Positions 5,536 to 64,000 of a stretch of 64,000 nt of DNA are shown piece by piece. The notes under the pieces are model-generated. The model had not been told where the DNA came from. It ran no database searches and saw only the letters and a list, made by a program, of their open reading frames with translations. Position 1 is the first letter of the stretch. Each line of letters starts with the position of its first letter. The position numbers and the translations under genes are program-made. Source of the DNA: Thermoanaerobaculia bacterium. Lineage in GTDB: Bacteria > Acidobacteriota > Thermoanaerobaculia > Gp7-AA8. The DNA is taken from contig JBBRTB010000001.1 of NCBI GenBank assembly GCA_038244815.1, forward strand, positions 40,099 to 104,098, in the 5' to 3' direction.

Positions 5536-8128
<2,593 letters not shown>

Positions 8129-11059: not shown

Positions 11060-12049
11060 GCACTGCTCACCTGAAACGGTCGCGTCGCAGAAAACGCCCT
11101 CGTCATCAGACTGGGCGAACAGTCAACCGGGAACCATGAGCAGCACAATAACGAAGAACAATCGCGCAGATTTCATCTTCGCCTCCAACGCCACGACCAA
11201 ATATAGGTTCGAGGTGGAACTCTGTCCAGTAGTGCGAGGCGGAACTCTGTCAAGGAGTTCGAGGATAGGAAAAAGCATTTCGCGTTCGACTCTACGAAGT
11301 GCGAGATTCTGAAGCTTTAGAGTCTTTTCCCATGCGCGCTGACGGTTTTGGATCGATCTTCGCGAGAAGTATCGGTGGTTTCGTCATGGCGGCGGATGGA
11401 GCGAGCCGGGAGAGGTGACGTTCGCGGTGTTTGCGCTCCCGCGTGTGGGTGAGTGAGCAGGCTTCGGCCCGTCTGGTCACCAGCCTGCTGTGCTGGGCGG
11501 CACGCGCTCGCGGTTGACGCGTTGACCAGACGCTTGGAAACAGACACAGGCGGCACGCGCTCGCGGATCTCGATCCCCGTTGCCGACTGCACGATGTCCT
11601 GCACGCCTTCGAGGTGCTGAACGTTGAGCGCCGTCATCACGGACGTGCCGGTGGCGAGAATCTCCTCGACGTCCTGCCTCCGTTTGTCGTTGCGCGAGCC
11701 GGGGCCATTCGTGTGCGGCAGCTCGTCGACGACCACGCGTCGGAATGTCGCGCGAGGATCGCCTCGAGGTCCATTTCTCGATCACGACCTCGCGATAGCT
11801 CACCTCCTGTGCGGAATGACTTCGAGATCGCCGACGCGGGCGAGCGTCTCCGCGCGCCCATGCGACGCAGGCGAATCCGACGACGATATCGACGCCGGCG
11901 CGGCGTGCGCGTCGTCGACGCCATGCGCGCGGTTTTGCCGACGCCCGCGGCCATGCCGGCTGCGCCAGTTCCTCGGCTGTCGGCATGGTGGCGGTGCTGG
12001 ACAACGACCAACACGAAGGACGCCCCGGGGTACGTTCTGCTCGACGCCG

Positions 12050-25745: not shown

Positions 25746-25760
25746 CGCTAGCTGTGCGTC

Positions 25761-25827
25761 CTGGGGCCTCGGGCCTCGGGCCTCGGATTACGGCTGAGTT
25801 GCACCCAGCACCCAGCACCGAGCACCC
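25761..25827. repeat. tandem heptamer repeats (GGCCTCG)x3 and (CACCCAG)x3 in convergent intergenic spacer
   Basis: Direct reading; first block is the reverse complement of the GAGGCCC heptamer found inside imuB/dnaE2. Confidence 0.5.
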
Positions 25828-33051: not shown

Positions 33052-34344
33052 ATGCCTCAAAATGGCCGGCGCGTCGCCGTCGTTCGCGGCGTGCGCACTC
33101 CTTTCGCAAAATCCGGAACCGTCTACGCGCGCCTGACCGCGCTCGATCTCGGCAAGATGGCCGTGACCGAGCTCGTGGAGCGCACCGGCGTCGATCCATC
33201 ACAGGTCGACGAGCTCGTCTTCGGCAACGTCATCCCCTCGGTCAAAGCGCCCAACATCGCCCGCGAGATCGTCCTGGGAACCGGTTTGCCGAAGAAGATT
33301 CCCGGCTACGCGGTGGGCAAGGCCTGCGATTCCGCGGCCCAGGCCATCACCTCCGGCGCCGATCTGATCTACCGCGGCTACGCGGACACGGTCATCGCGG
33401 GCGGGTCGGAGTCGCTGTCGGACGTTCCGATTCTCTTCTCGCGAAACATGTCCGAGGCCTTTCAGCGCGCGGCCAAGGCCAAGAGCCTGGCGGCGAGGCT
33501 CGGCGCGTTCCGGAAGATCCGCCCGAAAGATCTCGCTCCCGACACACCGGCGATCGCCGAGTCGACGACCGGCCTGAGCATGGGCGAGTCGGCCGAGAAG
33601 ATGGCCAAAGAGAACGGCATCTCGCGCGAGGCCCAGGACAAGTTCGCGCTGCAGAGCCACCACCGCGCCGCCAGGGCGACGCAGGACGGGCGGTTCAAGG
33701 ACGAAGTGATGACCGTCATCGTGCCGCCGAAGTACGACACGGTGGTGGAGACCGACAATCTCATCCGCGGCGACTCGACGCTCGAAGCGCTTTCGAAGCT
33801 CAAACCGGTCTTCGACCGCAAGTACGGCACGCTGACCGCGGGCAACTCGTCGTCTCTCACCGACGGCGCCGCCGCCGTGCTGCTGATGTCGGAAGAGAAA
33901 GCGAAGGCCGCCGGCTACAAGCCGATCGGTTATCTGCGCAGCTACGCCTACGCGGCGACCGATCCGTTCGACCAGTTGCTGCAGGGACCGGTGTTCGCGC
34001 TGCCCATCGCGCTCGAGCGCGCCGGACTGACGCTCAAGGACATCGGCGTGATCGAGATGCACGAGGCGTTCGCCGCGCAGGTACTGTCGAACATCCAGTG
34101 GATCGGCTCGAAGAAGATCGCCCAGGAGAAACTGGGACGCAGCGAGCCGGTCGGCGATATCGATCCCGAATCGATCAATCCTACCGGTGGCTCCATCGCC
34201 CTCGGACATCCGTTCGGCGCGACCGGTGCGCGCATCGTGACCACCGTCTGCAACGAACTGCAGCGCAGCGGGCAGCGGTATGGGCTCGTGACGATCTGCG
34301 CGGCCGGGGGAATCGGCGTGGCGCTGGTGCTCGAGGCGGAATAG
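33052..34344 (+). CDS. acetyl-CoA C-acyltransferase (thiolase family)
   Basis: Thiolase active-site Cys context (GKACDSAAQ), C-terminal CAAGG and GHP motifs. Confidence 0.9.
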   Translation: MPQNGRRVAVVRGVRTPFAKSGTVYARLTALDLGKMAVTELVERTGVDPSQVDELVFGNVIPSVKAPNIAREIVLGTGLPKKIPGYAVGKACDSAAQAITSGADLIYRGYADTVIAGGSESLSDVPILFSRNMSEAFQRAAKAKSLAARLGAFRKIRPKDLAPDTPAIAESTTGLSMGESAEKMAKENGISREAQDKFALQSHHRAARATQDGRFKDEVMTVIVPPKYDTVVETDNLIRGDSTLEALSKLKPVFDRKYGTLTAGNSSSLTDGAAAVLLMSEEKAKAAGYKPIGYLRSYAYAATDPFDQLLQGPVFALPIALERAGLTLKDIGVIEMHEAFAAQVLSNIQWIGSKKIAQEKLGRSEPVGDIDPESINPTGGSIALGHPFGATGARIVTTVCNELQRSGQRYGLVTICAAGGIGVALVLEAE

Positions 34345-34426
34345 GTCGTCGGTCGTGGGTCCCGGGGGCGTTCGAGCTGCGAAGCTCCCGCGACCGGCGA
34401 CCGGCGACCCCTATAATCGCAGTCGA

Positions 34427-35806
34427 ATGAAATCGCTTCTGGCCGTTCTTTTCCTCACCGCAGCAACCACTCTCCATGCCGCCGTTCCCCCGCTCGACCC
34501 GGCCACGCGCCAGCTGGTGCACGACATCTACCAGCAACTCATCGAGATCAACACGACCGAGTCGGCCGGCAACATGACCACGGCGGCAGAGGCGATGGCG
34601 GCGCGGCTTCGGGCGGCGGGATTTCCCGCGTCGGATGTCCGCGTGCTCACCCCGGAGCCGCGGCATGGCAACCTGGTGGCCCGGCTCCACGGGAACGGAA
34701 CGAAGAAGCCGCTGCTGTTGCTCGCCCACCTCGACGTGGTGGAAGCGCGGCGCGAGGACTGGACGACCGATCCGTTCAAGCTCATCGAACAGGACGGCTA
34801 CTTCTATGCCCGCGGGACCGGCGACGACAAGGCCATGGCCGCGATCTGGATCGCCACGCTGATCCGGCTCCGGCAGGAGCACTTCGTTCCCGATCGCGAC
34901 ATCATCGTGGCCCTGACCTCTGATGAAGAGAGCGGCGACTACAACGGGGCGAAGTGGCTCCTCGACAAGCATCGCGATCTGATCGATGCCGCGCTGGCCA
35001 TCAACGAGGGCGGAGGCGGCGCCATCAAGGACGGCAAGTATCTGTACAACGGCGTCGGCGCGAGCGAAAAGGTGTACGTGACATTCCTCCTCACCGTCCG
35101 GAACAAGGGCGGACACAGCTCCGTCCCGCGGAACCCGAATGCGATCTACCAGCTCGCCGACGCCCTGACGCGGCTCGCGCACTACGACTTCCCGGTCAGG
35201 CTCAACGAAGTCACGCGCGCATATTTCCATCGGCTGGGAGAGATCGAAGGCGGCGATCTGGGCGCGGACATGCGTGTGCTCGCGGATCGGGACGACATGG
35301 CCGCGGCCGCCCGCGTTGCGGAGACTCCCGCACTCAACGCGCGCATGCGCACGACCTGTGTGGCCACGAGACTGGCCGCCGGTCACGCCGACAACGCGCT
35401 GCCGCAAACGGCCACGGCCACCGTGAACTGCCGCGTGTTGCCCGGCGAGGATCCGGAAGCGGTGCGCGGCACGCTCCTGAGCGTGATCAACGATCCGGCC
35501 GTCGAGGTCACCTGGATCGACAAAGCGAAGCCCAGTGTCCCTTCGCCCCTGGATCCCGCGATCATGCAGCCGGTCGAATCGCTGACGCGTGAGTTCTGGG
35601 ACGTGCCCGTCGTGCCGCTCATGGCTGCCGGCGCGAGTGACGGTCTCTATCTGCGCAATGCCGGCATCCCGACGTACGGCCTCTCCGGAATCTTCGGCGA
35701 CATCAACGAGAGTCGCGCGCACGGAAAGGACGAGCGCGTCGGGGTGAAGCAGTTCTACGACGCCGCACAATTTCTCTATTCATTGGTGAAAAGGCTCGCT
35801 TCGTGA
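34427..35806 (+). CDS. secreted M20-family metallopeptidase (ArgE/DapE/CPG2-like)
   Basis: Signal peptide; HLDVV, GTGDDK, EESG metal-ligand motifs. Confidence 0.8.
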   Translation: MKSLLAVLFLTAATTLHAAVPPLDPATRQLVHDIYQQLIEINTTESAGNMTTAAEAMAARLRAAGFPASDVRVLTPEPRHGNLVARLHGNGTKKPLLLLAHLDVVEARREDWTTDPFKLIEQDGYFYARGTGDDKAMAAIWIATLIRLRQEHFVPDRDIIVALTSDEESGDYNGAKWLLDKHRDLIDAALAINEGGGGAIKDGKYLYNGVGASEKVYVTFLLTVRNKGGHSSVPRNPNAIYQLADALTRLAHYDFPVRLNEVTRAYFHRLGEIEGGDLGADMRVLADRDDMAAAARVAETPALNARMRTTCVATRLAAGHADNALPQTATATVNCRVLPGEDPEAVRGTLLSVINDPAVEVTWIDKAKPSVPSPLDPAIMQPVESLTREFWDVPVVPLMAAGASDGLYLRNAGIPTYGLSGIFGDINESRAHGKDERVGVKQFYDAAQFLYSLVKRLAS

Positions 35807-38629: not shown

Positions 38630-40909
38630 ATGACCTCACGCGCAGCGGATCGGCGCGATCTCTGGTGCATGGCGCTTCTCGTGGGCATCGCAACAGTCTT
38701 TTTCTCGGACGTGCTCTTCGCCGGTAGCAACTTCTACTACCGCGATCTGTTCATCTACCACTTCCCGATGAAACACATTGTCCGGGAGGCGATGATCAGC
38801 GGCGAATTCCCATTCTGGAACCGCTTTTACTCGAACGGCCAGCCCCTCGCTGCCAATCCTGCGTATGAGCTCTTTTATCCACCGCAGTGGCTGATTCTCA
38901 CCGGCTCGTACACCTTCGGGTTCGCTCTTCACATCCTCTTTCATGTCTACGCTGCCCTCGTCGGAACATTTCTCCTGTTGCGGACGATGACGCTCGGCCG
39001 CGCCGCGGCAACCTTCGGGGCACTCTCGTTCGGCATGGGCGGCTTCCTTCTCGGATCCATGACGATGCTGCCGACATTTTTCGTCTGGGCGCTCGCACCC
39101 CTGGTGGGATGGAGCATCGTTCGGGCGTTGTGCGCACCGGGCCCTTCGACCGTCGCGGTGGCGGCTCTTCTGGCGGGTGTGCAATTGATCATCGCCGAGC
39201 CGATGGCCATCCTGCAGGTGTGGCTGCTGATCGCGGTGTGCGTGCTGGTATTCGCTCGCCGCCAAACGGGCGTCCTGGCCGCGATCGGCGGGGCAGCGAT
39301 GCTCGTGGCCGCCGTTTTGATCGTTCCGGCGATCGACCACGCCCGGGACTCCGCTCGGTCGCGTGGGATCGCCTTCAACGTCGTTCGGCAGTATTCGCTG
39401 CCGCCCTCTCGCCCGCTGGAGATGGCCATTCCACACCTCTACGGTGTTCTCGACCCGTTCGCCGCTGCGTATTGGGGGGCGGCGGCCTTCGATCGTGGCG
39501 CGCCATATCTCTCCAGCCTTTACAACGGCATCGCCGTGGCCATTCTCGTCCTGGCCGGACTGATTCTTCGCGCACGGGGCTCGTTAACCGTCGTGGTGCT
39601 GAGCCTCATCTCTTATCTGCTGGCCATCGGCGATCGCACCCCGTTACTACGGGCCCTGTACGACGCCGGAATCGCGCGGGGCATTCGTTACCCCGAAAAG
39701 TTCGCCGCCCTCGCCGTCGTCACGATGACGTTCTTCGCAGCATCCATCGCTGACCGCCTGCTCTCAGGAGATGAGAAGGCGCGCCGGTCCGCGATCGCGG
39801 CGGGACTGATCATCTTCCTGATCAGCGTCGTGCCTCTGTTCTTTGCGCGATCACTCGGCCAGCCAAGGCTGGAAGCTCTGGCGCGGAGAGAGTGGCTGAT
39901 CGGACTGGCCTTCGCTGCCGCGGCCACGTTACTCCTGGCCGCTCTTCCGCGCGTCCCCCGACGGGCCTGGCTGCTGGTGGCATTCGCGGTGGTGCTGCTC
40001 GACCTCGTCCTCGTCGACAGTGAGCTCGTCACGCGCATGCCCAGGTCATTCTTCACGCCACCAGCCGTCGTGGCCGGCTTCGAGGCCGATCGAAACGACT
40101 ATGAAGTCATGCATCGCGGCGAATGGAACGCGGAGGATCCGAACTATCACGCGCTGCGCGCCGCCTTCGGCCCGTGGTTCTCGCGCAATGGACTGCAGCC
40201 ATTCTCACTCGACGCCTGGGGAGTGCGCAGCGCGCTCGAGCTGGACTTCGACGAGACAGCACTTCTCCCAACTCACGATCTGCTCGATGCGATGATGAAG
40301 GTCGGCAACCGAGGATTTGCGCACTGGGCGGAATCGTTCGCAGCGATCTCGAATGTGCGTTATCTGGTCGACTATCTTCCACTTGCCAATGTGCTCTCGC
40401 AGCATGGGCCGGTCGAGCAGGCCCGAATGGTTCGCCTGACGCATCTCCCTTCGACAGGGCGCTACTACTTTCCGCAGCAGATCGTGCATGCCCTGACCCC
40501 GGACGATGTCGTCGCATTCATCGAGAGAACCGGCATCCAGCGGCCGGTCGCGTTCGTGCCGTTCGTCCCGCCAACACCGGCACGGGCGCAAGTGCTGAAT
40601 GTGAGCGAGCGTGCAAACGGTGCCACGATCGACGTCATATGCGAGGAGAGGGCACTTCTCGTGGCCACGGTCACACGCCACAAGTACTGGCACGCAACGA
40701 TCGATGGAAAGCCGGCGCCGCTGCTTCCGGTGAACATCGCCTATCAGGGATTGATGGTGCCGGCCGGCCGCCACCGAGTGGAGATGCGTTATCGCAACCC
40801 GCTCGTCATCGCGGGGGGGATGGTGACCGTGCTGAGCGTCGCGGCGTGCGCAGCCGTGATCGCTACTGCTCCGACACGACCACGCCATCGCCCTCGAAGC
40901 GGATCTTGA
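38630..40909 (+). CDS. YfhO-like large polytopic membrane protein (putative lipid-linked glycosyltransferase)
   Basis: N-terminal ~12 TM region, large C-terminal extracytoplasmic domain and terminal TM, as in the YfhO family. Confidence 0.5.
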   Translation: MTSRAADRRDLWCMALLVGIATVFFSDVLFAGSNFYYRDLFIYHFPMKHIVREAMISGEFPFWNRFYSNGQPLAANPAYELFYPPQWLILTGSYTFGFALHILFHVYAALVGTFLLLRTMTLGRAAATFGALSFGMGGFLLGSMTMLPTFFVWALAPLVGWSIVRALCAPGPSTVAVAALLAGVQLIIAEPMAILQVWLLIAVCVLVFARRQTGVLAAIGGAAMLVAAVLIVPAIDHARDSARSRGIAFNVVRQYSLPPSRPLEMAIPHLYGVLDPFAAAYWGAAAFDRGAPYLSSLYNGIAVAILVLAGLILRARGSLTVVVLSLISYLLAIGDRTPLLRALYDAGIARGIRYPEKFAALAVVTMTFFAASIADRLLSGDEKARRSAIAAGLIIFLISVVPLFFARSLGQPRLEALARREWLIGLAFAAAATLLLAALPRVPRRAWLLVAFAVVLLDLVLVDSELVTRMPRSFFTPPAVVAGFEADRNDYEVMHRGEWNAEDPNYHALRAAFGPWFSRNGLQPFSLDAWGVRSALELDFDETALLPTHDLLDAMMKVGNRGFAHWAESFAAISNVRYLVDYLPLANVLSQHGPVEQARMVRLTHLPSTGRYYFPQQIVHALTPDDVVAFIERTGIQRPVAFVPFVPPTPARAQVLNVSERANGATIDVICEERALLVATVTRHKYWHATIDGKPAPLLPVNIAYQGLMVPAGRHRVEMRYRNPLVIAGGMVTVLSVAACAAVIATAPTRPRHRPRSGS

Positions 40910-44914: not shown

Positions 44915-45007
44915 GGGTCATTCTGAGCGCCGCAGAGCGCGAAGAATCCGGGCGGAGGCGGACCGCCCCCCAGATCCTTCGCCGTCTCCGCGGCTCAGGA
45001 TGACACA
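44915..45007. repeat. ~95-bp imperfect palindromic intergenic element (copy A), rny-ymdB spacer
   Basis: GTCATTCTGAGCGCCGCAGAGCGCGAAGAATCCGGGCGG...CCGCGGCTCAGGATGAC; ~85% identical to 59825-59917. Confidence 0.5.
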
Positions 45008-45026: not shown

Positions 45027-46592
45027 TCACTTCGCGTACTCCACGGTTCTCATCTCCCGGATCACGGTCACTTTGATCTGTCCCGGATACTGCAGCTCGG
45101 ACTCGATCTTGCGGGCCACGTCCTTGGAGAGCCAGATGGATTGTTCGTCGCTGATCTTCTCGGCGTTCACGATGATGCGCAACTCGCGCCCGGCCTGGAT
45201 GGCGAAGCTCTTCGAGACACCGTCCATGCTGTTGGCGATCGACTCCAGCCGCTCCAGGCGATGCACGTAATTCTCGAGAATCTCACGGCGTGCGCCCGGC
45301 CGGGCCGCCGACAGCGCGTCCGCGGCGTTGACCAGCACCGCCTCGACCGTCGTCGGATCGTAATCGCCGTGATGGCATTCCATGGCGTGGATGATCTCGC
45401 GCTTCTCGCCGTACTTGTCGAGCACCTGACGTCCCAGCTCGAGATGCGTGCCTTCCATCTCCCGGTCGATGGCCTTGCCGATGTCGTGCAGCAACCCGCC
45501 GCGCTTGGCGATCGTGTCGTTGACCCCGAGCTCGACCGCCATCAGCGCCGCCAGCTGCGCAACCTCGAGTGAGTGCACGAGCACGTTCTGCCCGTACGAG
45601 GTCCGGTACCGCAATCGTCCCAGCAGCTTGAGCACTTCGGGATTGATATCGGTGATGCCCAGTGAGAACGCCGCGGCCTCCCCTTCCTCGAAGAGCTTCT
45701 GGTCGAGCTCCTGCCGTACTTTCTCGACGAGCTCCTCGATGCGGGCCGGGTGAATGCGTCCGTCCTGCATCAGGCGCTCCAGCGAAATTCGCGCGATCTC
45801 GCGGCGGATCGGATCGAATCCCGACAGAATCACCGCTTCGGGCGTGTCGTCGACGATGAGATCGACTCCCGTGGCCAGCTCGAGCGCGCGGATGTTGCGC
45901 CCTTCACGGCCGATGATGCGGCCCTTCATGTCTTCCGACGGCAGGTCGACGACGGAGACGGTGTTCTCCGCGACGTAGTCCGAGGCCATGCGCTGGATGG
46001 CCATGCCCAGGATCTTGCGGGCCTTCTGCGTGCCCAGCTCGGTGGCCTCGGTCTCGATGCGCTTCACGATGTTGGCGGCGTCGAGCTTGGCTTCGTTCTC
46101 GATGCCGCGGATCAGTTCCTGGCGGGCCTGCTCGGCGGTGAGGCCGGCCACCTGCTCCAGTTTCCGGCGCTGCTCCTCGAACATCTGATCGAGCTGGCCC
46201 TCACGCCGTTCCACATCCTTCTCGCGGCTGGCGATGCCCTGATCGCGCTTCTCGACCTCGTCGATGCGGGCATCGATCTGCTGGGTCTTCCGGTCGATGT
46301 TCTCTTCTTTGGATTGGAGCCGCTGCTCCGACTTCTTCATCTCGTCGCGGCGTTGCTGAGCCTGCTTGTCGAACTCCGACCGCATCTGCAGCAGTTTTTC
46401 TTTCGCTTCGAGACTGGCTTCCTTGACGCGCGCCTCGGCCGACTTGCGGGCGTCTTCGACGATGCGCTCGGCCTCGCGGCGCGCTTCGACGAGCTGCGCC
46501 TCGACACGCTTGCGGTTGACCATCGCCCAGAGCAGGGCGAGCACGATGGCGCCTGCGACGCCAATCGCAATTCCTGTGATGATGGGTACCAA
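45027..46592 (-). CDS. rny: ribonuclease Y
   Basis: N-terminal TM, coiled-coil, KH domain, HD domain (HDIGK). Confidence 0.95.
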
Positions 46593-47738: not shown

Positions 47739-48560
47739 ATGGCTGCACCGGCTCGACCACTCTCCTCACAGTTCCGACTTCTCGATCTCAGGCCGAGCCA
47801 GGCGAAACCTGTCCTCGTCCCGCCTCTTCAACCGGTAGAACGCGGGCAGCGCGAAGCGCTCAGAAATCTTCGGGCCTCGCTCGATCCGGCCATCGCGCGG
47901 CACCTCACGAGCGCCACCGAGCTGATTCGCGCACTCGACAAAACCCGGCGCGAAGACTTCCTCCCCACCACGGTCGACGCCATCGACACGCTCCTGGGCG
48001 GTGGGCTGCGCCGCGGGAAAGTCGTCGAGCTCGTGGCCCGCCGCGCCACGGGCCGCTTCTCGATTGTCCTCTCGGCGCTGGCCGCGGCCACCTCGATCGG
48101 TGAAGCGGCGGCGCTCATCGACGTCAGCGATCACTTCGACCCGCAGATCGCCGAAGAGGCCGGAGTCGATCTGCGCCGTCTGCTGTGGGTGCGTCCGAAG
48201 ACGATGAAGGACGCGGTGCTGGCGGCGGAGCTGATCACGGCCACCGGCTTCCAGCTCGTGGTCATCGATGCGGGGCTCCATCCCGTACGTGGACGGCGCG
48301 TTCCCGACGCCACCTGGGTCCGTCTCGCTCGCGCGGCCGAATCGCACGGCGCGGCCATGCTCATCTCGGCACCGTACCCGTTCACGGGAACCGCATCCGA
48401 AGCGCTCATCCGCGGTGAGAGAACGCGCGTGCAATGGCTGGGCAGCGGAAAGTCGCCGCGGCTCCTCGGCGCCATCACCACCGATTTCCGGCTGGAGAAA
48501 CATCGTCATCGAAAACCGGGCGCGCCGGCGACCTGCGACCTGAGGCCGGTGACGCCATGA
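47739..48560 (+). CDS. imuA: ImuA (RecA/SulA-like inactive ATPase) of the ImuA-ImuB-DnaE2 mutasome
   Basis: RecA-fold remnant (LDTLLGGGLRRGKVVELV), position directly upstream of imuB with start/stop overlap. Confidence 0.65.
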   Translation: MAAPARPLSSQFRLLDLRPSQAKPVLVPPLQPVERGQREALRNLRASLDPAIARHLTSATELIRALDKTRREDFLPTTVDAIDTLLGGGLRRGKVVELVARRATGRFSIVLSALAAATSIGEAAALIDVSDHFDPQIAEEAGVDLRRLLWVRPKTMKDAVLAAELITATGFQLVVIDAGLHPVRGRRVPDATWVRLARAAESHGAAMLISAPYPFTGTASEALIRGERTRVQWLGSGKSPRLLGAITTDFRLEKHRHRKPGAPATCDLRPVTP

Positions 48561-50125
48561 CGCGGATCGCCTGCTTCTACGTCCCGATGTTCCCGCTGGC
48601 GGCGCGGCTGCGCAGCGAGCCGGAGCTGCTGGAAGAAGCGCTGGCCATCGTCGAGGGGAACGGCAACAACGCGCACGTGGTCGCGGCGACACGGCGCGCG
48701 CGCACGAAAGGCATTCGCCCCGGCCACTCGCTCGCCCAGGCGCGATCGATTCTGCCGAAGCTCATCGCGCGCGGCCGCGACGCCGCATGCGAGCACACCG
48801 CGCAGGAAGCGCTGCTCGAAGTCGCGGAGACGTTCTCGCCGCGCATCGAAGACGCCGGCGACGGCGTGGTGTACCTCGATGTCACAGGGATGGAGCGACA
48901 TTACCAGGCCTCGGGCCTCGGGCCGCAGGCCTCGGTCGAAATCAGGGCGGGGGAAACCGAGGCCCGAGGCCCGAGGCCCGAGGCCTCTCCCGAGCTCCTG
49001 CTCGGCCGCGAGGCCATCCGCCGCTGTGACGCCATCGGATTGCCGGCGCGCGCCGGCATTGCCGCGAGCAAGCTGGCGGCGCGTGTGGCGGCGGAGCTGC
49101 CGAAGTCGCCGCGCGTCGTCGAGCCGGGTCAGGAAGCGGAGTTTCTCGCACCGCTGCCTCTGACGCGACTGGCGCCCGAGGTGAATGCGGCGATGACGCT
49201 GGACCGGTGGGGAATCACGTCGATCGGCGACCTGGCCCGTCTTCCCGAAAGCGAAATTGCCAGCCGTCTCGGCGAGTGCGGCCGCGATCTGCACTCCGCG
49301 GCGCGCGGCATCGATCCGACACCGCTCATTCCGCGCCCCTTGCCGCCGGAGTTCCGCGAAGGGCTCGACCTGGAGTGGCCGCTCGTGGCGCTCGAGCCGT
49401 TTCTCTTCATCGCCAGCGCCGCGCTCGACCGGCTGACCAAACGGATGGAAGTGCAGGGCTTCGCCTGCACGCGGCTCGAGCTGACGATGCAGCTCGAACC
49501 GGATGGGTTTCATTCGCGCGCCATCGAGCTTCCGGCGCCGACGCGCGATGTGAAGACGATGCTGACGCTGCTGCGCCTCGACCTCGAGAAAACACCGCCC
49601 GGCGCGCCGGTCACCGGATTCGTGATCGTCGCCCATCCCGACCGCCCGCGGCGCGCGCAGTTGTCGCTGTTCGGTCCCGCCGCACTCTCGCCGGAGAAAC
49701 TGGCCACGACGATCGCCCGCCTCGTCTCACTCCTCGGCGACGGCCGCATCGGCATGGCCACGACGGTCGACGGTCATCTGCCGGAGCGTTACTCGATCGC
49801 CGACTACGCCCCTCCTGCCCCGCCCGACGCGCGGAAGAAACCGCCGCGCAGCCGGGGACTGCTGGCCGTGCGCGTGTTCCGCCCGCCCATCCCCGTCGAG
49901 GTCATCACGCGTGTCGTCGGCGGCGAAATGCAGATCGAGAGGATCGAAGGAGACGGCGACGTCTCCGGCCCCGTGCGCATCTCCTCCGGCCCCTGGCGCA
50001 TCGAAGACGGCTGGTGGAAAGACGCCCCCGCCGCGCGCGAGTACTGGGACGTGGAGGTAGGAGCGAGCGTGTATCGGGTGTTCCAGACTTCCGAGGGGTG
50101 GAGGGTGGATGCGAGGTACGACTGA
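48558..50125 (+). CDS. imuB: ImuB (Y-family DNA polymerase-like, catalytically inactive) with in-frame repeat insertion
   Basis: UmuC/DinB-like palm (ACFYVPMFPLAA...YLDVTG) lacking acidic triad; C-terminal ImuB-specific region. Confidence 0.85.
48906..48987. repeat. palindromic heptamer-repeat element inside imuB: (GGCCTCG)n left arm plus GAAACC(GAGGCCC)3GAGGCCT right arm
   Basis: Read directly; encodes in-frame ...GLGPQASVEIRAGETEARGPRPEA... Confidence 0.55.
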
Positions 50126-50130
50126 GGAGA

Positions 50131-50575
50131 AATACAAAATGCAAAATGCAGAATTTAAAATTAAACAACCGCCTCGCATTCAGGATCGCGCGTTCGATTT
50201 TGCATGTCGGATCGTTCAGCTTCATCGCACGTTACTTCGGACAGGACCCACGGCACGGCGGCTTGCAAATCAACTCCTCGATGCCGGTACGTCAGTCGGT
50301 GCCAATCTCGAAGAAGCTGAAGCCGGCCAGAGTAAACCCGACTTCATTTCAAAGTGCCGCATTGCGCTCAAAGAAGCGCGTGAAAGCCTTTACTGGCTTC
50401 GCTTATTCGCAGGCACAGAAATCGTCAAGCCGGATCAACTCGCACCGATCATTCAGGAGGCACGCGAGATCGTCGCGATTCTGACGACGATCGTTCGAAA
50501 CGCGACAAAGTCGCGTTAACGATTTTTACTTTCAACATTCTGCATTTTGCATTTTGCATTTTGCATTTTGCATCT
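50131..50575. mobile_element. low-GC insertion carrying a four-helix-bundle (23S rRNA IVS-type) gene, bounded by inverted (TGCAAAA)n heptamer repeats
   Basis: Left AATACAAAATGCAAAATGCAGAAT, right ATTCTGCA(TTTTGCA)4TCT (inverted); local GC far below flanks; sits between imuB stop and dnaE2 start. Confidence 0.55.
50139..50519 (+). CDS. four-helix-bundle protein (TIGR02436 / 23S rRNA-intervening-sequence protein family)
   Basis: Family hallmark ...FISKCRIALKEARESLYWLRLF...; ATG lies inside the left inverted repeat. Confidence 0.8.
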   Translation: MQNAEFKIKQPPRIQDRAFDFACRIVQLHRTLLRTGPTARRLANQLLDAGTSVGANLEEAEAGQSKPDFISKCRIALKEARESLYWLRLFAGTEIVKPDQLAPIIQEAREIVAILTTIVRNATKSR

Positions 50576-50600
50576 ATTCCACAGCTCGCTCACGCTCGCC

Positions 50601-53600
50601 ATGTCCCACGGACGAAAACCAACCAGAAACCTCGACGCGTTAAACATCACGTACTCGCCTCCCGGCGAGACGAAGGAGAAGGTCAAAGCCCGCGCCACGA
50701 GCGTGCCGCTCTCCTCCCAGTACGACCACATCCCGTTCGTCCACGAGAAATTCGGCGGGACGAAGCCGGATGAAGCGCCGCCGGAGCCGGCGCCGCCGAA
50801 ACGGAGCACGACGAGAACGAAAACGCGTCCGTACGCGGAGCTGCATGCCGCCAGCGCGTTCTCGTTTCTCGATGGCGCGTCGCTGCCTGAAGATCTCATG
50901 TACCAGGCAGCGGAACACGACCTGCCGGCCATGGCGCTCGTCGACACGAACGGCGTCTACGGCGCACCGCGCTTCTACGGCGCGGCGAAGAAGACCGGAG
51001 TCCGAGCCCTCGTCGGCAGTGAGCTCGTCCTCGAAACCGAGGCCCGAGGCCCGAGGCCCGAGGCCTGCCTCACCCTCCTCGTCGAGAACCGCACCGGCTA
51101 CAGGAACCTCTGCAAGCTCGTGACGGCGGGGGCCGCCGGACGAGAGAAGGGCAAAGCGCGATTCACCTGGGATCTCGTCGAACAGTACGCGGAAGGGCTG
51201 CACTGCCTCACGCGCGCGGACGATGAAACCGCCGGCCGGATCGCCGGTATCTTTCCGAACCGGACGCACGTCGAGCTGCAGCGTCACTTCCGCCGCGACG
51301 AAGAGCGCCACAACATCCGCCTCATCGATCTGGCGCGCCGCCTGAGACTCCCGCTCGTGGCCACCAACGGCGTGCGTTACGCACGGCCGCAGGACAAGGA
51401 GCTGCACGACGTCCTCACCTGCATCCGCGAGAAGACTCACGTCGACAAGGCCGGGCGTCTGCTCGGCGTCAACCGCGAGCGTTCCATCAAGTCAGCGGCG
51501 GAGATGAGCCGTCTCTTCGCCGATCTGCCCGAAGCGCTCGACGGCGCCTGGTCGCTCGCGAACACGCTCGACTTCACGCTCGCCGACCTCGGCTACCAGT
51601 TTCCCGACTACCCGCTTCCCGCCGGCGAGACGAACAACTCCTTCCTGCGCAAGATCGCCTGGAACTCGGCCAAAGCGCGCTTCCGGCCGCTGACCGCCAA
51701 AGCGCAGATGCAGGTCGAGAAAGAGCTGAACATGATCGAGAAGCTCGATCTGGCCGGCTACTTCCTCATCGTCTGGGACATCGTGCAGTTCTGCGGCCGC
51801 GAGAAAATCCTCGTGCAGGGCCGCGGATCCGCCGCGAACAGCGCCGTCTGTTACGCGCTCGGCATCACCGCGGTCGATCCGGTGAAGATGGAGCTGCTGT
51901 TCGAGCGTTTCCTCTCCGAGGAGCGCGGCGAATGGCCGGACATCGATCTCGATCTGCCTTCGGGCGATCAGCGCGAGAGAGTCATCCAGCACGTCTACCA
52001 GACCTACGGCGTGCACGGTGCGGCCATGACCGCGAACGTGATCACGTACCGCGACCGCTCCGCCGCGCGCGAAGTCGGCAAAGCGCTCGGCTACTCGCTC
52101 GAGCAGGCCGACAAGCTCTCGAAATGCGTCTCCACCTGGAACTTCGGCGAGATCAGGGAGGCCATCGAGAATCTCGCCGGCGAGCTGGAGAAAACGGGAT
52201 TCGATCCCGCCGACCTGCGCGTGCAGCACTTCATGCGCCTCTACCTGCAGATCCAGAATCTGCCGCGCCACCTCGGCCAGCATTCGGGCGGGATGGTGAT
52301 GGCCAAAGGACGCCTCGACGAAGTCGTGCCACTCGAGCCGGCCTCGATGCCCGGCCGCGTGGTCATCCAATGGGATAAGGAGGACTGCGCCGATCTCGGC
52401 CTCATCAAAGTGGATCTCCTGGGACTGGGGATGCTGGCGGCGATCGAAGAAGCGCTGCCGACGATCCGCACCAACGAAGGCATCGATGTCGACCTCGCTC
52501 ACCTGCCGGAAAACGATCCCGCCGTCTACAAGATGCTCAACGAGGCCGACACCGTCGGCATGTTCCAGGTCGAGAGCCGCGCGCAGATGGCGTCGCTGCC
52601 GCGCAACGCGCCGAAGAAGTTCTACGACATCGTGGTGCAGGTCGCCATCATCCGTCCCGGACCGATCGTCGGCGGCATGATCCGGCCGTTCTTCGATCGC
52701 CGCCAGGGCAAGGCGCCGGTCGAATATCCGCATCCCTGCCTCGAGCCGATCCTCAAGCGCACGCTCGGTGTGCCGCTCTTTCAGGAGCAACTGCTGCGCA
52801 TGGCTATGGTGGCGGCGAACTTCACCGGCGGCGAGGCCGAGGAACTGCGCCGGGCCATGGGGTTCAAGCGTTCGATGGAGCGCATGCACGACATCGAGAA
52901 GCGGCTGCGCGAAGGCATGACCAGCAACGGCATCGATCTTCCCGCCCAGGAGCAGATCGTGAAGTCGATCACCGCGTTCGCGCTCTACGGCTTCCCGGAA
53001 TCGCACGCGGCGAGCTTCGCGCTCATCGCCTACGCCAGCGCGTATCTGAAAGCGCACCACTCCGCGGCGTTCTACGTCTCGCTGCTGAACGCGTGGCCGA
53101 TGGGTTTCTACCATCCGGCCACGCTCGTCAAGGACGCGCAGCGGCACAAGACCGGCGTGCTGCCGATCGACGTGAATCACTCCGGCTGGATGTGCCGCTG
53201 GGAAAACAACGGCGTGCGCATGGGGATGCGGTTCATCAAGGGACTGCGCGAAGCGACCGCGAAGAAGATCGAGGCCAATCAGCCGTTCACGTCGACGGAG
53301 GATCTCGCCTGGCGCTGCCGGCTGCGTGACGACCAGCTCACCAAGCTCGCCCACGCCGGCGCGCTCGGCTCACTCGGATTGACGAGACGCAACGCGCTCT
53401 GGCAGGCCGCCAAAGCGGCGAAACCGGCCGGAGAGCTGTTCGAAGGAAACCGAGGCCCCAGGCCCGAGGCCCGAGGCCTGCTTCCGGAGATGTCCGCGAT
53501 CGAGAACACGATGGCCGACTACCACACCATGGAGCTGACGACCGGTCCGCATCTCATCGAGCATTTCCGTTCGCAGCTCGAGAGAGACAACATCCTGTCG

Positions 53601-53903
53601 GCCGCGGATCTGACGCGCATCCCCAGCGGCCGGCGTGTCACGACCGCCGGCGCGGTCATCGTGCGCCAGCGTCCCGGGACGGCGAGGGGATTCGTGTTCC
53701 TCACGCTCGAAGACGAGACCGGTCTCTCGCAGGCCATCGTCAGCCCGGCGCTGTTCAGCGATCAGCGCTCGACGATCCTCGGACACTCCGGCCTGATCGT
53801 CGAAGGCATTCTCCAGAACACGGATGGGCAGTGCTCGGTGAAGGCGGAGAAGTTCTGGCCGCTGCCGGGCGTCGACGAGATCCAGAGTCACGACTTTCAT
53901 TGA
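50601..53903 (+). CDS. dnaE2: error-prone DNA polymerase DnaE2 (Pol III alpha family), two in-frame repeat insertions
   Basis: PHP domain, Pol III alpha catalytic region (GRGSAANSAVCYALGIT), no tau/beta-binding tail; follows imuA-imuB; ATG 50601 (upstream 54 nt are repeat sequence). Confidence 0.9.
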   Translation: MSHGRKPTRNLDALNITYSPPGETKEKVKARATSVPLSSQYDHIPFVHEKFGGTKPDEAPPEPAPPKRSTTRTKTRPYAELHAASAFSFLDGASLPEDLMYQAAEHDLPAMALVDTNGVYGAPRFYGAAKKTGVRALVGSELVLETEARGPRPEACLTLLVENRTGYRNLCKLVTAGAAGREKGKARFTWDLVEQYAEGLHCLTRADDETAGRIAGIFPNRTHVELQRHFRRDEERHNIRLIDLARRLRLPLVATNGVRYARPQDKELHDVLTCIREKTHVDKAGRLLGVNRERSIKSAAEMSRLFADLPEALDGAWSLANTLDFTLADLGYQFPDYPLPAGETNNSFLRKIAWNSAKARFRPLTAKAQMQVEKELNMIEKLDLAGYFLIVWDIVQFCGREKILVQGRGSAANSAVCYALGITAVDPVKMELLFERFLSEERGEWPDIDLDLPSGDQRERVIQHVYQTYGVHGAAMTANVITYRDRSAAREVGKALGYSLEQADKLSKCVSTWNFGEIREAIENLAGELEKTGFDPADLRVQHFMRLYLQIQNLPRHLGQHSGGMVMAKGRLDEVVPLEPASMPGRVVIQWDKEDCADLGLIKVDLLGLGMLAAIEEALPTIRTNEGIDVDLAHLPENDPAVYKMLNEADTVGMFQVESRAQMASLPRNAPKKFYDIVVQVAIIRPGPIVGGMIRPFFDRRQGKAPVEYPHPCLEPILKRTLGVPLFQEQLLRMAMVAANFTGGEAEELRRAMGFKRSMERMHDIEKRLREGMTSNGIDLPAQEQIVKSITAFALYGFPESHAASFALIAYASAYLKAHHSAAFYVSLLNAWPMGFYHPATLVKDAQRHKTGVLPIDVNHSGWMCRWENNGVRMGMRFIKGLREATAKKIEANQPFTSTEDLAWRCRLRDDQLTKLAHAGALGSLGLTRRNALWQAAKAAKPAGELFEGNRGPRPEARGLLPEMSAIENTMADYHTMELTTGPHLIEHFRSQLERDNILSAADLTRIPSGRRVTTAGAVIVRQRPGTARGFVFLTLEDETGLSQAIVSPALFSDQRSTILGHSGLIVEGILQNTDGQCSVKAEKFWPLPGVDEIQSHDFH
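51033..51068. repeat. GAAACC(GAGGCCC)3GAGGCCT element inside dnaE2 (copy 2)
   Basis: 34/34 nt identical to imuB copy; encodes ETEARGPRPEA. Confidence 0.55.
53445..53481. repeat. GAAACCGAGGCCCCAGGCCCGAGGCCCGAGGCCT element inside dnaE2 (copy 3, 1 substitution)
   Basis: Encodes NRGPRPEARG in frame. Confidence 0.55.
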
Positions 53904-59809: not shown

Positions 59810-59824
59810 GGCGAACCGTTACAA

Positions 59825-59917
59825 GTCATTCCGAGCGCCGGAGAGCGCGAGGAATCTGGGCGGGGGAGCACACCGCCTCCGCCCGAATTTCTCGCCGTCT
59901 TCGCGGCTCGGAATGAC
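59825..59917. repeat. ~95-bp imperfect palindromic intergenic element (copy B), convergent spacer; overlaps tlpA stop
   Basis: GTCATTCCGAGCGCCGGAGAGCGCGAGGAATCTGGGCGG...TTCGCGGCTCGGAATGAC. Confidence 0.5.
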
Positions 59918-60418
59918 TCAGCGGGCCAGGGCGGATTCGAGCGCCGTGGTCATGGCCGCATCCCTCATGTCCACGATTCCGAAGTGTTTCCAGACGATGT
60001 TCCCGGACCGGTCGACGATGACCGAGGTCGGAATCACCGACGTCTTGAAGATCGTGGCCAGGTTGCCGTCGGGATCGACCACGATCGGGTAGGCGATCTT
60101 CTCATCGGCAACGAACGGCTTGACGTCGGCGGCACCCCCTTCGTCCACGCTGACGCCGATGACCTTGAATCCGCGGCTGGCATACTTCGCGTGGAGTTTC
60201 TGCAGTTCCGGGATCTCGAAGCGGCATGGACCGCACCACGTCGCCCAGACGTTGAGCAGAACGACGTTGCCCTTCTCGCCGGCGATATCGAACGGCCGCC
60301 CATCGAGCCACTGCGCCTTGTACGCCGGCATGGGCGGACCGGACGGCTTGACCACGGTTTCCTGTTGGTGGCAGGCGGCGATGAGCAGCAGCGCCGCGAA
60401 CGAAAGACATTTCTTCAT
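59918..60418 (-). CDS. TlpA-family thiol:disulfide oxidoreductase lipoprotein
   Basis: Lipobox LLIAAC; WATWCGPC redoxin motif. Confidence 0.85.
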   Translation of the reverse strand: MKKCLSFAALLLIAACHQQETVVKPSGPPMPAYKAQWLDGRPFDIAGEKGNVVLLNVWATWCGPCRFEIPELQKLHAKYASRGFKVIGVSVDEGGAADVKPFVADEKIAYPIVVDPDGNLATIFKTSVIPTSVIVDRSGNIVWKHFGIVDMRDAAMTTALESALAR

Positions 60419-63733: not shown

Positions 63734-64000
63734 CTATGACGACGCACGCCACAACGTAACCAGCACTCCCACGCCGACGAGGATGAGCAGCAGGGGCCAG
63801 AAAAAGCTGCGCGACTTCACTGGTTTTTCGCCCTCTGCGGGCTGAGTGGTGGCCGAGGTGTCCAACGTTGCGCTCGTCGATGCGGTGCTCGACTCCGTCG
63901 CCGGCGCGGTCTCCAGCGGCGAAGTCACACTCGGCGAAGTCACACTCGGCGTCGGCGTTGGAGCGGCTGTCTGCGTGGCCACGAACGCCGGAGGTGTCGT
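63734..64000 (-). CDS. partial ORF: Thr/Ser/Pro-rich low-complexity region ending in a C-terminal TM helix; 5' end outside window
   Basis: ORF continues to window edge; composition only. Confidence 0.3.
   Translation of the reverse strand, partial: TTPPAFVATQTAAPTPTPSVTSPSVTSPLETAPATESSTASTSATLDTSATTQPAEGEKPVKSRSFFWPLLLILVGVGVLVTLWRASS

Follow-up and report, generated by a model that had tools for sequence, protein, structure and literature searches.

Four-unit heptanucleotide arrays and heptamer-arm hairpins within the imuB and dnaE2 mutasome genes of a Thermoanaerobaculia bacterium

How does one and the same 34-nt sequence come to lie in two different protein-coding genes, and twice in one of them? 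The question is posed by a 64,000-nt stretch of DNA from a Thermoanaerobaculia bacterium (Acidobacteriota; GenBank assembly GCA_038244815.1, contig JBBRTB010000001.1, forward-strand positions 40,099 to 104,098), referred to below as the window, in which the mutasome genes imuB, encoding a catalytically inactive Y-family polymerase homologue, and dnaE2, encoding an error-prone Pol III alpha homologue, contain three copies of such a sequence between them. A first-pass annotation, made from the sequence alone, had recognized these copies and taken them for a small element inserted in frame three times. Exact-match searching agrees with it on the identical units in imuB and dnaE2 and on a one-substitution copy in dnaE2, at coordinates that differ from the first ones by 1-3 nt: the 34-mer GAAACCGAGGCCCGAGGCCCGAGGCCCGAGGCCT, that is, GAAACC(GAGGCCC)3GAGGCCT, occupies positions 48953-48986 in imuB and 51033-51066 in dnaE2, with the variant copy at 53446-53479, and no match to it is expected in shuffled sequence. 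The explanation that we favour, and that we hold to be about equally likely to be right or wrong, is that the copies are four-unit arrays of a heptanucleotide simple-sequence repeat (SSR), CGAGGCC, which would be made and homogenized by replication slippage, template switching within hairpins and local gene conversion, and would be tolerated in surface loops, presumably without a selected function. The arrays and the parts of the associated hairpin are listed here, L with a number denoting a related locus used for comparison.

48953-48986, plus strand: copy 1, the right arm, (CGAGGCC)x4, of a hairpin in imuB; exact match to the 34-mer, translated ETEARGPRPEA
48906-48935, plus strand: left arm of the imuB hairpin, about four GGCCTCG units with two imperfections, translated QASGLGPQAS; an orthologous arm is present in L111 and L113
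48936-48955, plus strand: loop of the imuB hairpin, unlike in sequence to the loops of L111, L113, L114 and L115
51033-51066, plus strand: copy 2 (dnaE2 site 1), four units without a partner arm, in the loop of a beta-hairpin of the PHP domain; exact match, translated ETEARGPRPEA
53446-53479, plus strand: copy 3 (dnaE2 site 2), four units without a partner arm, in the linker that joins the HHH_6 and OB domains; one substitution, read in another frame (NRGPRPEARG)

Tandem Repeats Finder assigns a period of 7 and 4.1 copies to all three sites, with 100%, 100% and 90% matches, in agreement with our own scan. The window holds nine period-7 arrays and none of period 8 or 9, and the 14-mer GAGGCCCGAGGCCC, with up to one mismatch allowed, matches 13 times against 0.07 expected. 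The imuB copy is, as had been described, one half of a palindrome, its right arm, opposite a left arm of (GGCCTCG)n: the arms span 31 nt, are 94% complementary and, as RNA, are predicted to fold at -69 kcal/mol (z = -5.2). Neither of the two dnaE2 copies has a complementary arm, and their folding is no better than that of shuffled sequences (z = 0.7 and -1.7).

Each copy had also been credited with adding the peptide ETEARGPRPEA, which holds for copies 1 and 2 but not for copy 3, where a different reading frame gives GNRGPRPEARGL. This bears directly on the possibility that the hydrophilic peptide is a functional loop motif under protein-level selection and that the nucleotide similarity is a by-product. 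The peptide shared by copies 1 and 2 and the retention of NRGPRPEARG in several DnaE2 orthologues would fit such a motif, but the different frame and peptide of copy 3 essentially exclude it, orthologues have unrelated peptides or nothing at the same sites, the arrays are more conserved than flanking synonymous positions, and the region is modelled as disordered, all of which leaves this explanation hardly credible. The earlier judgement that the similarity resides in the DNA rather than in the peptide is upheld both by the different translations and by arrays that stay near-invariant while the flanking codons diverge.

Alignment of ImuB and DnaE2 to homologues and a model of ImuB place the inserts in loops. 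When ImuB is aligned to Escherichia coli Pol IV, the insert follows immediately after the AYLDVT strand and precedes the next helix. In an AlphaFold2 model of ImuB that is of moderate overall quality (mean pLDDT, the predicted local distance difference test score, 66.8), residues 113-142, between the strand at 104-108 and the helix at 145-159, have pLDDT below 50 and flanks above 80. Among 120 aligned ImuB homologues, the basal 495-aa form reads GMERHF-DDEH-ELGR at the insert site, and about half of the homologues have a hypervariable insert of 5-65 residues at exactly this position. Both DnaE2 sites are likewise variable loops in the homologue alignment: site 1 aligns with a PHP-domain beta-hairpin loop that is variable and expanded in Taq Pol III alpha too, and site 2 is the hypervariable linker between HHH_6 (residues 854-932) and the OB fold (1014-1089). 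All three sites are loops in which extra disordered residues should be tolerated.

The DNA of five close relatives (L111, L112, L113, L114 and L115) was compared with the window at these sites; all comparative DNA comes from metagenome assemblies, that is, from consensus sequences in which minority alleles are hidden. Relative to orthologues, the window imuB is longer by about 81 nt and dnaE2 site 1 by 21 nt, and the three postulated in-frame insertions are borne out only in part, the site 2 linker being of about normal length. In imuB, the arms GGCCTCG/CGAGGCC are common to the window, L111 and L113, with different loops and, in L111, without the GAAAC prefix; L114 has GGTCCTC/CGAGGAC throughout all units of both arms, and the arms of L115 are GGTCGCR/GGCGACC. 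At dnaE2 site 1, a single native unit, GAAACCGAGGCCCGC (ETEAR), is all that L111 has, which corresponds to the basal length of the loop, and the window and L112 are longer by exactly 21 nt (four units versus one); L114 and L115 have no array there and an unrelated TDDSR loop. Since parsimony-informative positions in dnaE2 favour the window and L111 as sisters (77 sites versus 41 and 48), L111 has probably lost three units at this site. The window, L111, L112 and L115 have the four-unit CGAGGCC array in common at dnaE2 site 2, at 84-87% nucleotide identity, and it is preceded on the 5' side by GGAAAC in the window, AACAAC in L111, GGAAAC in L112 and GAAAAC in L115. This comparison at the imuB and dnaE2 sites indicates that the array positions are fixed by descent and that the prefix lies outside any transposing unit.

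Within dnaE2, site 1 matches site 2 without a difference for 37 nt, down to the imperfect last unit GAGGCCT-GC, both in the window and in L112. Simple slippage from a seed like that of L111 would not give such an identity; templated copying or conversion between the two dnaE2 sites would. To this extent the earlier description of the arrays as members of a repeat family that is probably recombinogenic is well founded.

The same description held that gain or loss of one unit could turn imuB or dnaE2 off and on, which would create heritable variation in induced mutagenesis. As in the contingency loci of Haemophilus, Neisseria and Campylobacter, a non-triplet unit lies within an open reading frame (ORF), so that a one-unit change would shift the frame; three tracts of this kind are found in two essential mutasome genes, and copy number does vary between relatives, from one unit to four at dnaE2 site 1. 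Contingency tracts are, however, long and demonstrably polymorphic, copy numbers of 6-23 being among those cited (PMC4679880), and known heptamer and tetramer tracts are far longer than those described here, which have only four units at every site and are stable across related lineages, the four units being kept at dnaE2 site 2 (window, L111, L112 and L115) and in the imuB right arm (window, L111 and L114). The only length difference observed among copies at the three sites is the frame-keeping one of three units (21 nt), with none at site 2 or in the imuB right arm, and all 83 imuB consensus sequences that were compared are open, without internal stops or frameshifted alleles. A phase switch is, on these grounds, very unlikely.

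The imuB insert site was followed further in loci from a metagenome scan with an ImuB alignment, which returned 80 imuB loci, with regions annotated from tblastn spans. Across 83 loci, 53 have no insert at this site, two have a short one and 28 have one longer than 45 nt, and 21 of these 28 fold at -40 kcal/mol or below, the lowest value being -144 (L153). The arm units differ between loci (GCAGAGC, GGTTGCC, GGGGAGT, GGGAGTC, GCGAGCA and others), and a few inserts are non-periodic palindromes or single-arm arrays. The dnaE2 sites are also occupied differently in other lineages, by in-frame hairpins with eight-base repeat arms in L185, L192 and L193 and by in-frame palindromes, GTCATCCTGAGC...GCTCAGGATGAC, resembling repetitive extragenic palindromic (REP) sequences in L160, L162 and L163.

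Several individual hairpins extend this picture. The L153 insert (positions 7350-7570) is a 222-nt in-frame segment of imuB in which one heptamer hairpin is nested in the loop of another (-143.7 kcal/mol), and two further interleaved pairs of heptamer arms lie at the imuA-imuB junction of the same locus. Heptamer-arm hairpins are also found at this junction, just 5' of the imuB start, in L148 (6888-6994), L149 (116-185), L152 (2576-2675) and L180 (5036-5123); in L149 the unit GCGAGCA is used both there and in the internal hairpin of imuB.

Could such arrays and hairpins be miniature non-autonomous mobile elements, comparable to Rickettsia palindromic elements (RPEs), miniature inverted-repeat transposable elements or REP sequences, that perhaps prefer hairpin loops or other permissive sites and are in frame by chance? 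RPEs, reportedly described by Ogata and colleagues in 2000, are said to be 100-150 bp long, to share a conserved consensus and to have been copied into many unrelated genes. The likeness is real in that palindromic DNA lies in frame in conserved protein genes, at surface positions, and adds peptides that depend on the frame; the CGAGGCC unit is used five times in the 64-kb window, the insert is present or absent between relatives, in frame, in imuB (patchily) and at dnaE2 site 1, one insert (L153) is nested, and bona fide REP-like palindromes occupy, in frame, the same dnaE2 linker in L160, L162 and L163, with one at an intergenic site syntenic with a heptamer hairpin of L113. More than 110 loci, spread over many high-GC phyla (Myxococcota, Thermoanaerobaculia, Vicinamibacterales, Streptomyces and others), were found when one genome per species was scanned for (GAGGCCC)3, and among the matches listed some single genomes, such as Myxococcales HKST-UBA02 and Polyangia SMAG_U4460, have many (GAGGCCC)n loci. 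Yet these loci, among the matches listed, have no constant GAAACC prefix and often lie beside arrays of related heptamers, and their unit counts, also among the matches listed, decay like those of ordinary SSRs (3 units, 60; 4 units, 21; 5 units, 8; 6 units, 5; and so on). The exact 34-mer is absent from the 110 other-genome loci chosen for (GAGGCCC)3 and occurs outside the window only in L112, at the orthologous dnaE2 sites. Only the architecture of tandem heptamers and inverted arms is conserved, unlike the RPE consensus, and nothing beyond the heptamer; the prefix varies among orthologues, neither target-site duplications nor terminal signatures can be seen, the imuB copy alone is palindromic, the site 1 array of dnaE2 grows from native sequence, arrays are inherited vertically at dnaE2 site 2 and in imuB, other heptamers occupy the same sites, units vary between sites so that there is no master copy to paste, and neither a linked transposase nor evidence of transposition was found. 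The arms also differ from those of REP sequences and REP doublets forming hairpins (REPINs) in being variable tandem heptamers without GTAG or CGTC tags. The discrete 34-nt mobile element of the Rickettsia kind that had been proposed is rejected on the comparison of orthologous DNA and the search across loci, and a mobile origin of the arrays and hairpins in the wider sense is quite unlikely.

Hairpin arms of the same design are found around a neighbouring gene, which lies between imuB and dnaE2 in the operon and belongs to the family of 23S rRNA intervening-sequence proteins (IVP).

47739-48560, plus strand: imuA (RecA-like), first gene of the operon; PF00154, E 1e-12, syntenic in related loci
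48557-50125, plus strand: imuB, 522 aa from the ATG at 48557, encoding the catalytically inactive Y-family polymerase homologue; PF00817
50109-50519, plus strand: small four-helix-bundle gene (IVP family, Avd-like) between imuB and dnaE2; PF05635, E 3e-18
50598-53903, plus strand: dnaE2 (error-prone Pol III alpha homologue), probable start at ATG 50598; Pfam PHP, DNA_pol3_alpha, finger, HHH_6 and OB domains
50130-50161, plus strand: left inverted arm of the IVP gene, (AAATGCA)n; 30-32 nt, with 84-87% complementarity to its counterpart on the right
50536-50573, plus strand: right inverted arm of the IVP gene, (CATTTTG)5.4, the reverse complement of the left-arm unit; 30-32 nt, 84-87% complementary

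Most related loci (among them L111, L115, L129, L133, L142, L143, L149, L150, L158, L170 and L184-L194) have a homologue of the IVP gene in this position and on the operon strand. All 54 matches lie in the imuB-dnaE2 spacer or directly 5' of dnaE2, with none elsewhere in the approximately 1.6 Mb of DNA of the loci compared or elsewhere in the window, which indicates that IVP is a conserved component of the operon and not a proliferating autonomous partner of the hairpins. It was also considered as a partner of the (GAGGCCC)n arrays and rejected, as none of the 110 (GAGGCCC)3 loci has an IVP homologue. The gene is flanked by covarying inverted heptamer arms in at least 24 related loci, with units that differ by lineage (AAATGCA, GAATGCA, TGAATGT in L111, AATTAAG in L112, GAAGGCA, GAAGTTC, GAATTCC and others) and arms that are about 93% complementary; two tandem copies are present in L160, L164, L168 and L180, and remnants in L112 and L115. 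The arrangement recalls the Leptospira-type intervening sequences (IVS) of 23S rRNA carrying a PF05635 ORF that Ralph and McClelland reportedly described in 1993. Here too, a PF05635 ORF is bracketed by inverted repeats able to pair as a long stem, both in the window and in 24 or more related loci; unlike those sequences, the cassette lies between imuB and dnaE2 and not within a helix of 23S rRNA, has tandem-heptamer arms with lineage-specific units and is vertically conserved in the operon. Possible roles of IVP are those of a mutasome accessory factor and of an excisable RNA cassette.

What keeps the arms complementary while their sequence changes? In the imuB stem of five relatives, 12 of the 30 pairs show compensatory double changes and 95% of the cells are paired, a result that none of 500 shuffles reaches and that is lost when the registers are slid. 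The two arms switch together, from CGAGGCC to CGAGGAC in L114 and to GGCGACC in L115. Watson-Crick pairs make up about 93% of positions over 34 stems (imuB hairpins and the flanks of IVP), and among mismatches of the transition type G.U is not favoured on the sense strand (15 G.U versus 23 A.C). The lack of a G.U excess argues that arm complementarity is kept symmetrically on both strands, as a DNA-level process predicts. Selection on the sense-strand RNA alone is unsupported by this test, with which selection for a perfect duplex is compatible.

Slippage and template switching associated with quasi-palindromes are established processes, from which, together with local conversion, the mechanism behind the SSR arrays is inferred. 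Replication slippage would amplify a 7-nt seed and homogenize the units of one array; quasi-palindrome correction, in which the template is switched from one hairpin arm to the other, would maintain complementarity, so that a unit change sweeps through both arms; and ectopic conversion or templated copying between nearby arrays of like unit could produce the 34-37 nt identity between sites. Selection would act as a filter only, in that within genes stop-free units of frame-keeping total length would survive, with steps of three units (21 nt), and the arrays would be translated as disordered low-complexity loops.

The arrays of the window belong to an abundant class. In the window plus L112-L195 (852 kb), with our own detection thresholds, there are 192 arrays of period 7 versus 54, 29, 1 and 0 of periods 5, 8, 10 and 11, and 135 of the 192 (70%) form inverted pairs with a complementary unit at most 1.5 kb away, the usual product being a perfect hairpin of about 28 bp; at least 40 distinct heptamer units are in use. 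The spacing of the inverted pairs is bimodal, with loops of 9-53 nt on the one hand and spacers of about 350-400 nt enclosing the PF05635 gene on the other; of the 31 pairs with loops of up to 60 nt, 13 are in frame in imuB and most others are intergenic. With imperfect arrays merged, 49 arrays have three units, 111 have four, 29 have five and three have six; the four-unit peak appears only after this merging and is given little weight, perfect runs showing no clean peak in length but a shoulder between 25 and 30 nt, with a cut-off beyond about 30 nt. The arrays are densest in the imuB-dnaE2 spacer (1.82 per kb), followed by imuB (0.32), flanking DNA with coding and intergenic sequence mixed (0.20) and dnaE2 (0.041). 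An overall enrichment in the mutasome genes was not found, the imuB figure being due to one hot-spot, and only the spacer is strongly enriched.

In these properties the class resembles the heptanucleotide long SSRs of bacteria that Mrazek and colleagues reportedly described in 2007. The four traits looked for here, namely tandem 7-nt units, an excess of period 7, copy-number differences between close relatives and inverted pairs, are all present, and arrays of about four units, many of them in convergent stem-loop pairs, genome-preferred units and sequence variation among close relatives are further points of likeness. Similar in their heptamer arrays, hairpin-forming repeats, nesting and occasional location in genes are the cyanobacterial short tandemly repeated repetitive (STRR) sequences with nested small dispersed repeats, reportedly described by Elhai and colleagues in 2008, which differ in belonging to another phylum, in their AT-richer fixed units and in small dispersed repeats with conserved sequences of 21-27 nt; we know of no report that associates them with imuB or dnaE2. 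Heptamer repeats are over-represented in bacteria (PMC4692102, PMC4679880). The GGGAATC arrays of Xanthomonas mostly have four units and 70 of 186 form convergent inverted pairs (PMC4692102), GGGGAYT arrays occur in Nostoc (PMC4692102), and TAACTGA arrays in Beggiatoaceae and cyanobacteria (PMC4679880). Published heptamer SSRs are essentially intergenic, with one dominant unit per genome; here, in contrast, a single clade uses dozens of units, recurrent loops of conserved genes contain in-frame arrays and hairpins, and both arms change their unit together. In the searchable literature, where absence is no proof of novelty, no description was found of in-frame heptamer-arm hairpins at recurrent imuB/dnaE2 loops, of joint turnover of arm units or of heptamer-flanked PF05635 genes in a mutasome operon.

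Some of these observations sit uneasily with the explanation by freely slipping, selectively neutral arrays. The clustering of merged arrays at four units and the sharp drop above about 30 nt are not obviously expected from free slippage, although a detection threshold may be part of the cause; hairpins are retained at orthologous positions between lineages of 84-87% nucleotide identity, their arms still about 93% complementary, and selection for structure could account for this equally well; the same sites hold different hairpin classes by lineage, which hints at targeted insertion or a need for a hairpin; and the slippage, template-switching and conversion steps themselves are reconstructed rather than observed. 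It is the tight arm length, the persistent near-perfect stems and the different hairpin classes at the same sites that lead us to retain both the mobile elements considered above and a functional structure as alternatives.

If the structure were functional, the long stems would be selected as double-stranded RNA or cruciform DNA controlling the SOS mutasome operon, the candidates being the in-frame imuB hairpin, the hairpins at the imuA-imuB junction of some lineages and the stem of about 28 bp enclosing the IVP gene. Cleavage by RNase III, for example, could limit imuB/dnaE2 mRNA and excise the IVP segment, by analogy with the intervening sequences of 23S rRNA. The retention of architecture during sequence turnover, with its 12 of 30 compensatory pairs, the narrow arm length of about four units, the hairpins, some of them nested (L153), with differing units at the same imuB site in at least 21 lineages, the covarying inverted arms around the IVP gene in at least 24 loci, all in the mutasome operon, and the peak of array density in the imuB-dnaE2 spacer (1.82 versus 0.20 per kb in flanking DNA) all point in this direction. 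They are countered by the absence of the imuB insert from 53 of 83 lineages, by dnaE2 copies in the window that have neither partner arm nor fold, by the lack of G.U enrichment on the transcribed strand, by similar hairpins dispersed at comparable density in unrelated intergenic regions, and by an Rfam search that gave no family match, only miRNA-like hairpin matches below threshold. On balance a selected structure appears rather unlikely. We likewise regard as unlikely the broader proposition that heptamer-arm hairpins are a distinct and undescribed kind of self-renewing palindromic repeat, with about four heptamers per arm and a unit that changes in both arms, which lies in frame in mutasome loops, brackets an Avd-like gene and is maintained by a dedicated mechanism or function, such as double-stranded RNA processed by RNase III that gates the SOS mutasome, or recognition by the IVP protein.

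Either outcome would be of consequence. If the copies are slippage-born arrays tolerated in loops, they provide a clear natural case of non-triplet repeats and palindromes inside essential protein genes, confined to disordered loops, changing in length only by frame-keeping steps of three units and renewed in sequence by concerted evolution, which would help to annotate inserts in metagenomic proteins and to understand the origin of loops and disordered regions. If the hairpins are functional, on the other hand, the ImuA-ImuB-DnaE2 mutasome, which in many bacteria is chiefly responsible for induced mutagenesis, would turn out to be regulated at a further, new level, and the conserved Avd-like gene between imuB and dnaE2 would be a candidate accessory factor.

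As regards the annotation of the operon, the ImuB protein of the window is 100% identical to the database protein P0001; ImuB homologues are labelled ImuB or Y-family polymerase and come from Thermoanaerobaculia, DnaE2 homologues are labelled error-prone DNA polymerase, and the nearest database proteins to both are from metagenome-assembled genomes of Thermoanaerobaculia (Acidobacteriota). The longest ORFs of imuB and dnaE2 begin 5' of the likely real starts (48434 versus 48557 and 50547 versus 50598, respectively). P0001 starts at the ATG at 48557, with a 4-nt overlap with the imuA stop, and the additional dnaE2 codons from 50547 on do no more than read through the (CATTTTG)n arm, the probable start being the ATG at 50598. 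Within dnaE2 there is also a perfect 18-nt inverted repeat (52434-52451 and 52689-52706; CTGGCGGCGATCGAAGAA and TTCTTCGATCGCCGCCAG), its halves 237 nt apart, and a tandem duplication of a 21-nt unit (x1.9) lies at 49963-50002, close to the 3' end of imuB.

Outside the operon, the fourth heptamer block that had been noted in the window is present as an array of CGAGGCC type on the opposite strand, beside an array of a different heptamer.

25760-25786, minus strand: intergenic array of the CGAGGCC-type unit, (CCTCGGG)3.9, between convergent ORFs
25801-25826, plus strand: neighbouring array of a different heptamer, (GCACCCA)3.9, from the tandem-repeat scan

These two arrays are 15 nt apart within the 81-nt gap of the convergent ORFs and are not complementary to each other, and the region 25760-25826 that contains both folds no better than shuffles. 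A short (CGACCGG)3 array occupies 34387-34409, 32 nt into the ORF 34355-35806; the minus-strand ORF 34181-35770, which overlaps that ORF, contains it as well.

The window further contains two copies of a palindrome of about 90 nt (GTCATTCYGAGCGCCG...CGGCTCRGRATGAC), similar to REP sequences or miniature inverted-repeat elements, at 44916-45003 and 59824-59918. The first lies just past the stop of a minus-strand ORF of 521 aa (45027-46592), a candidate RNase Y by synteny with L113, and at the corresponding site L113 has a heptamer hairpin, (AGGCCTT)4. A family related to this palindrome is found in frame in the HHH-OB linker of DnaE2 in L160, L162 and L163, where it is translated ...VILSR...LRMT.... 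Further short tandem duplications in the window have a 15-nt unit (x2.3, 100% matches, 63917-63951), a 25-nt unit (x2.2, 11210-11264) and a 30-nt unit (x2.0, 7371-7431).

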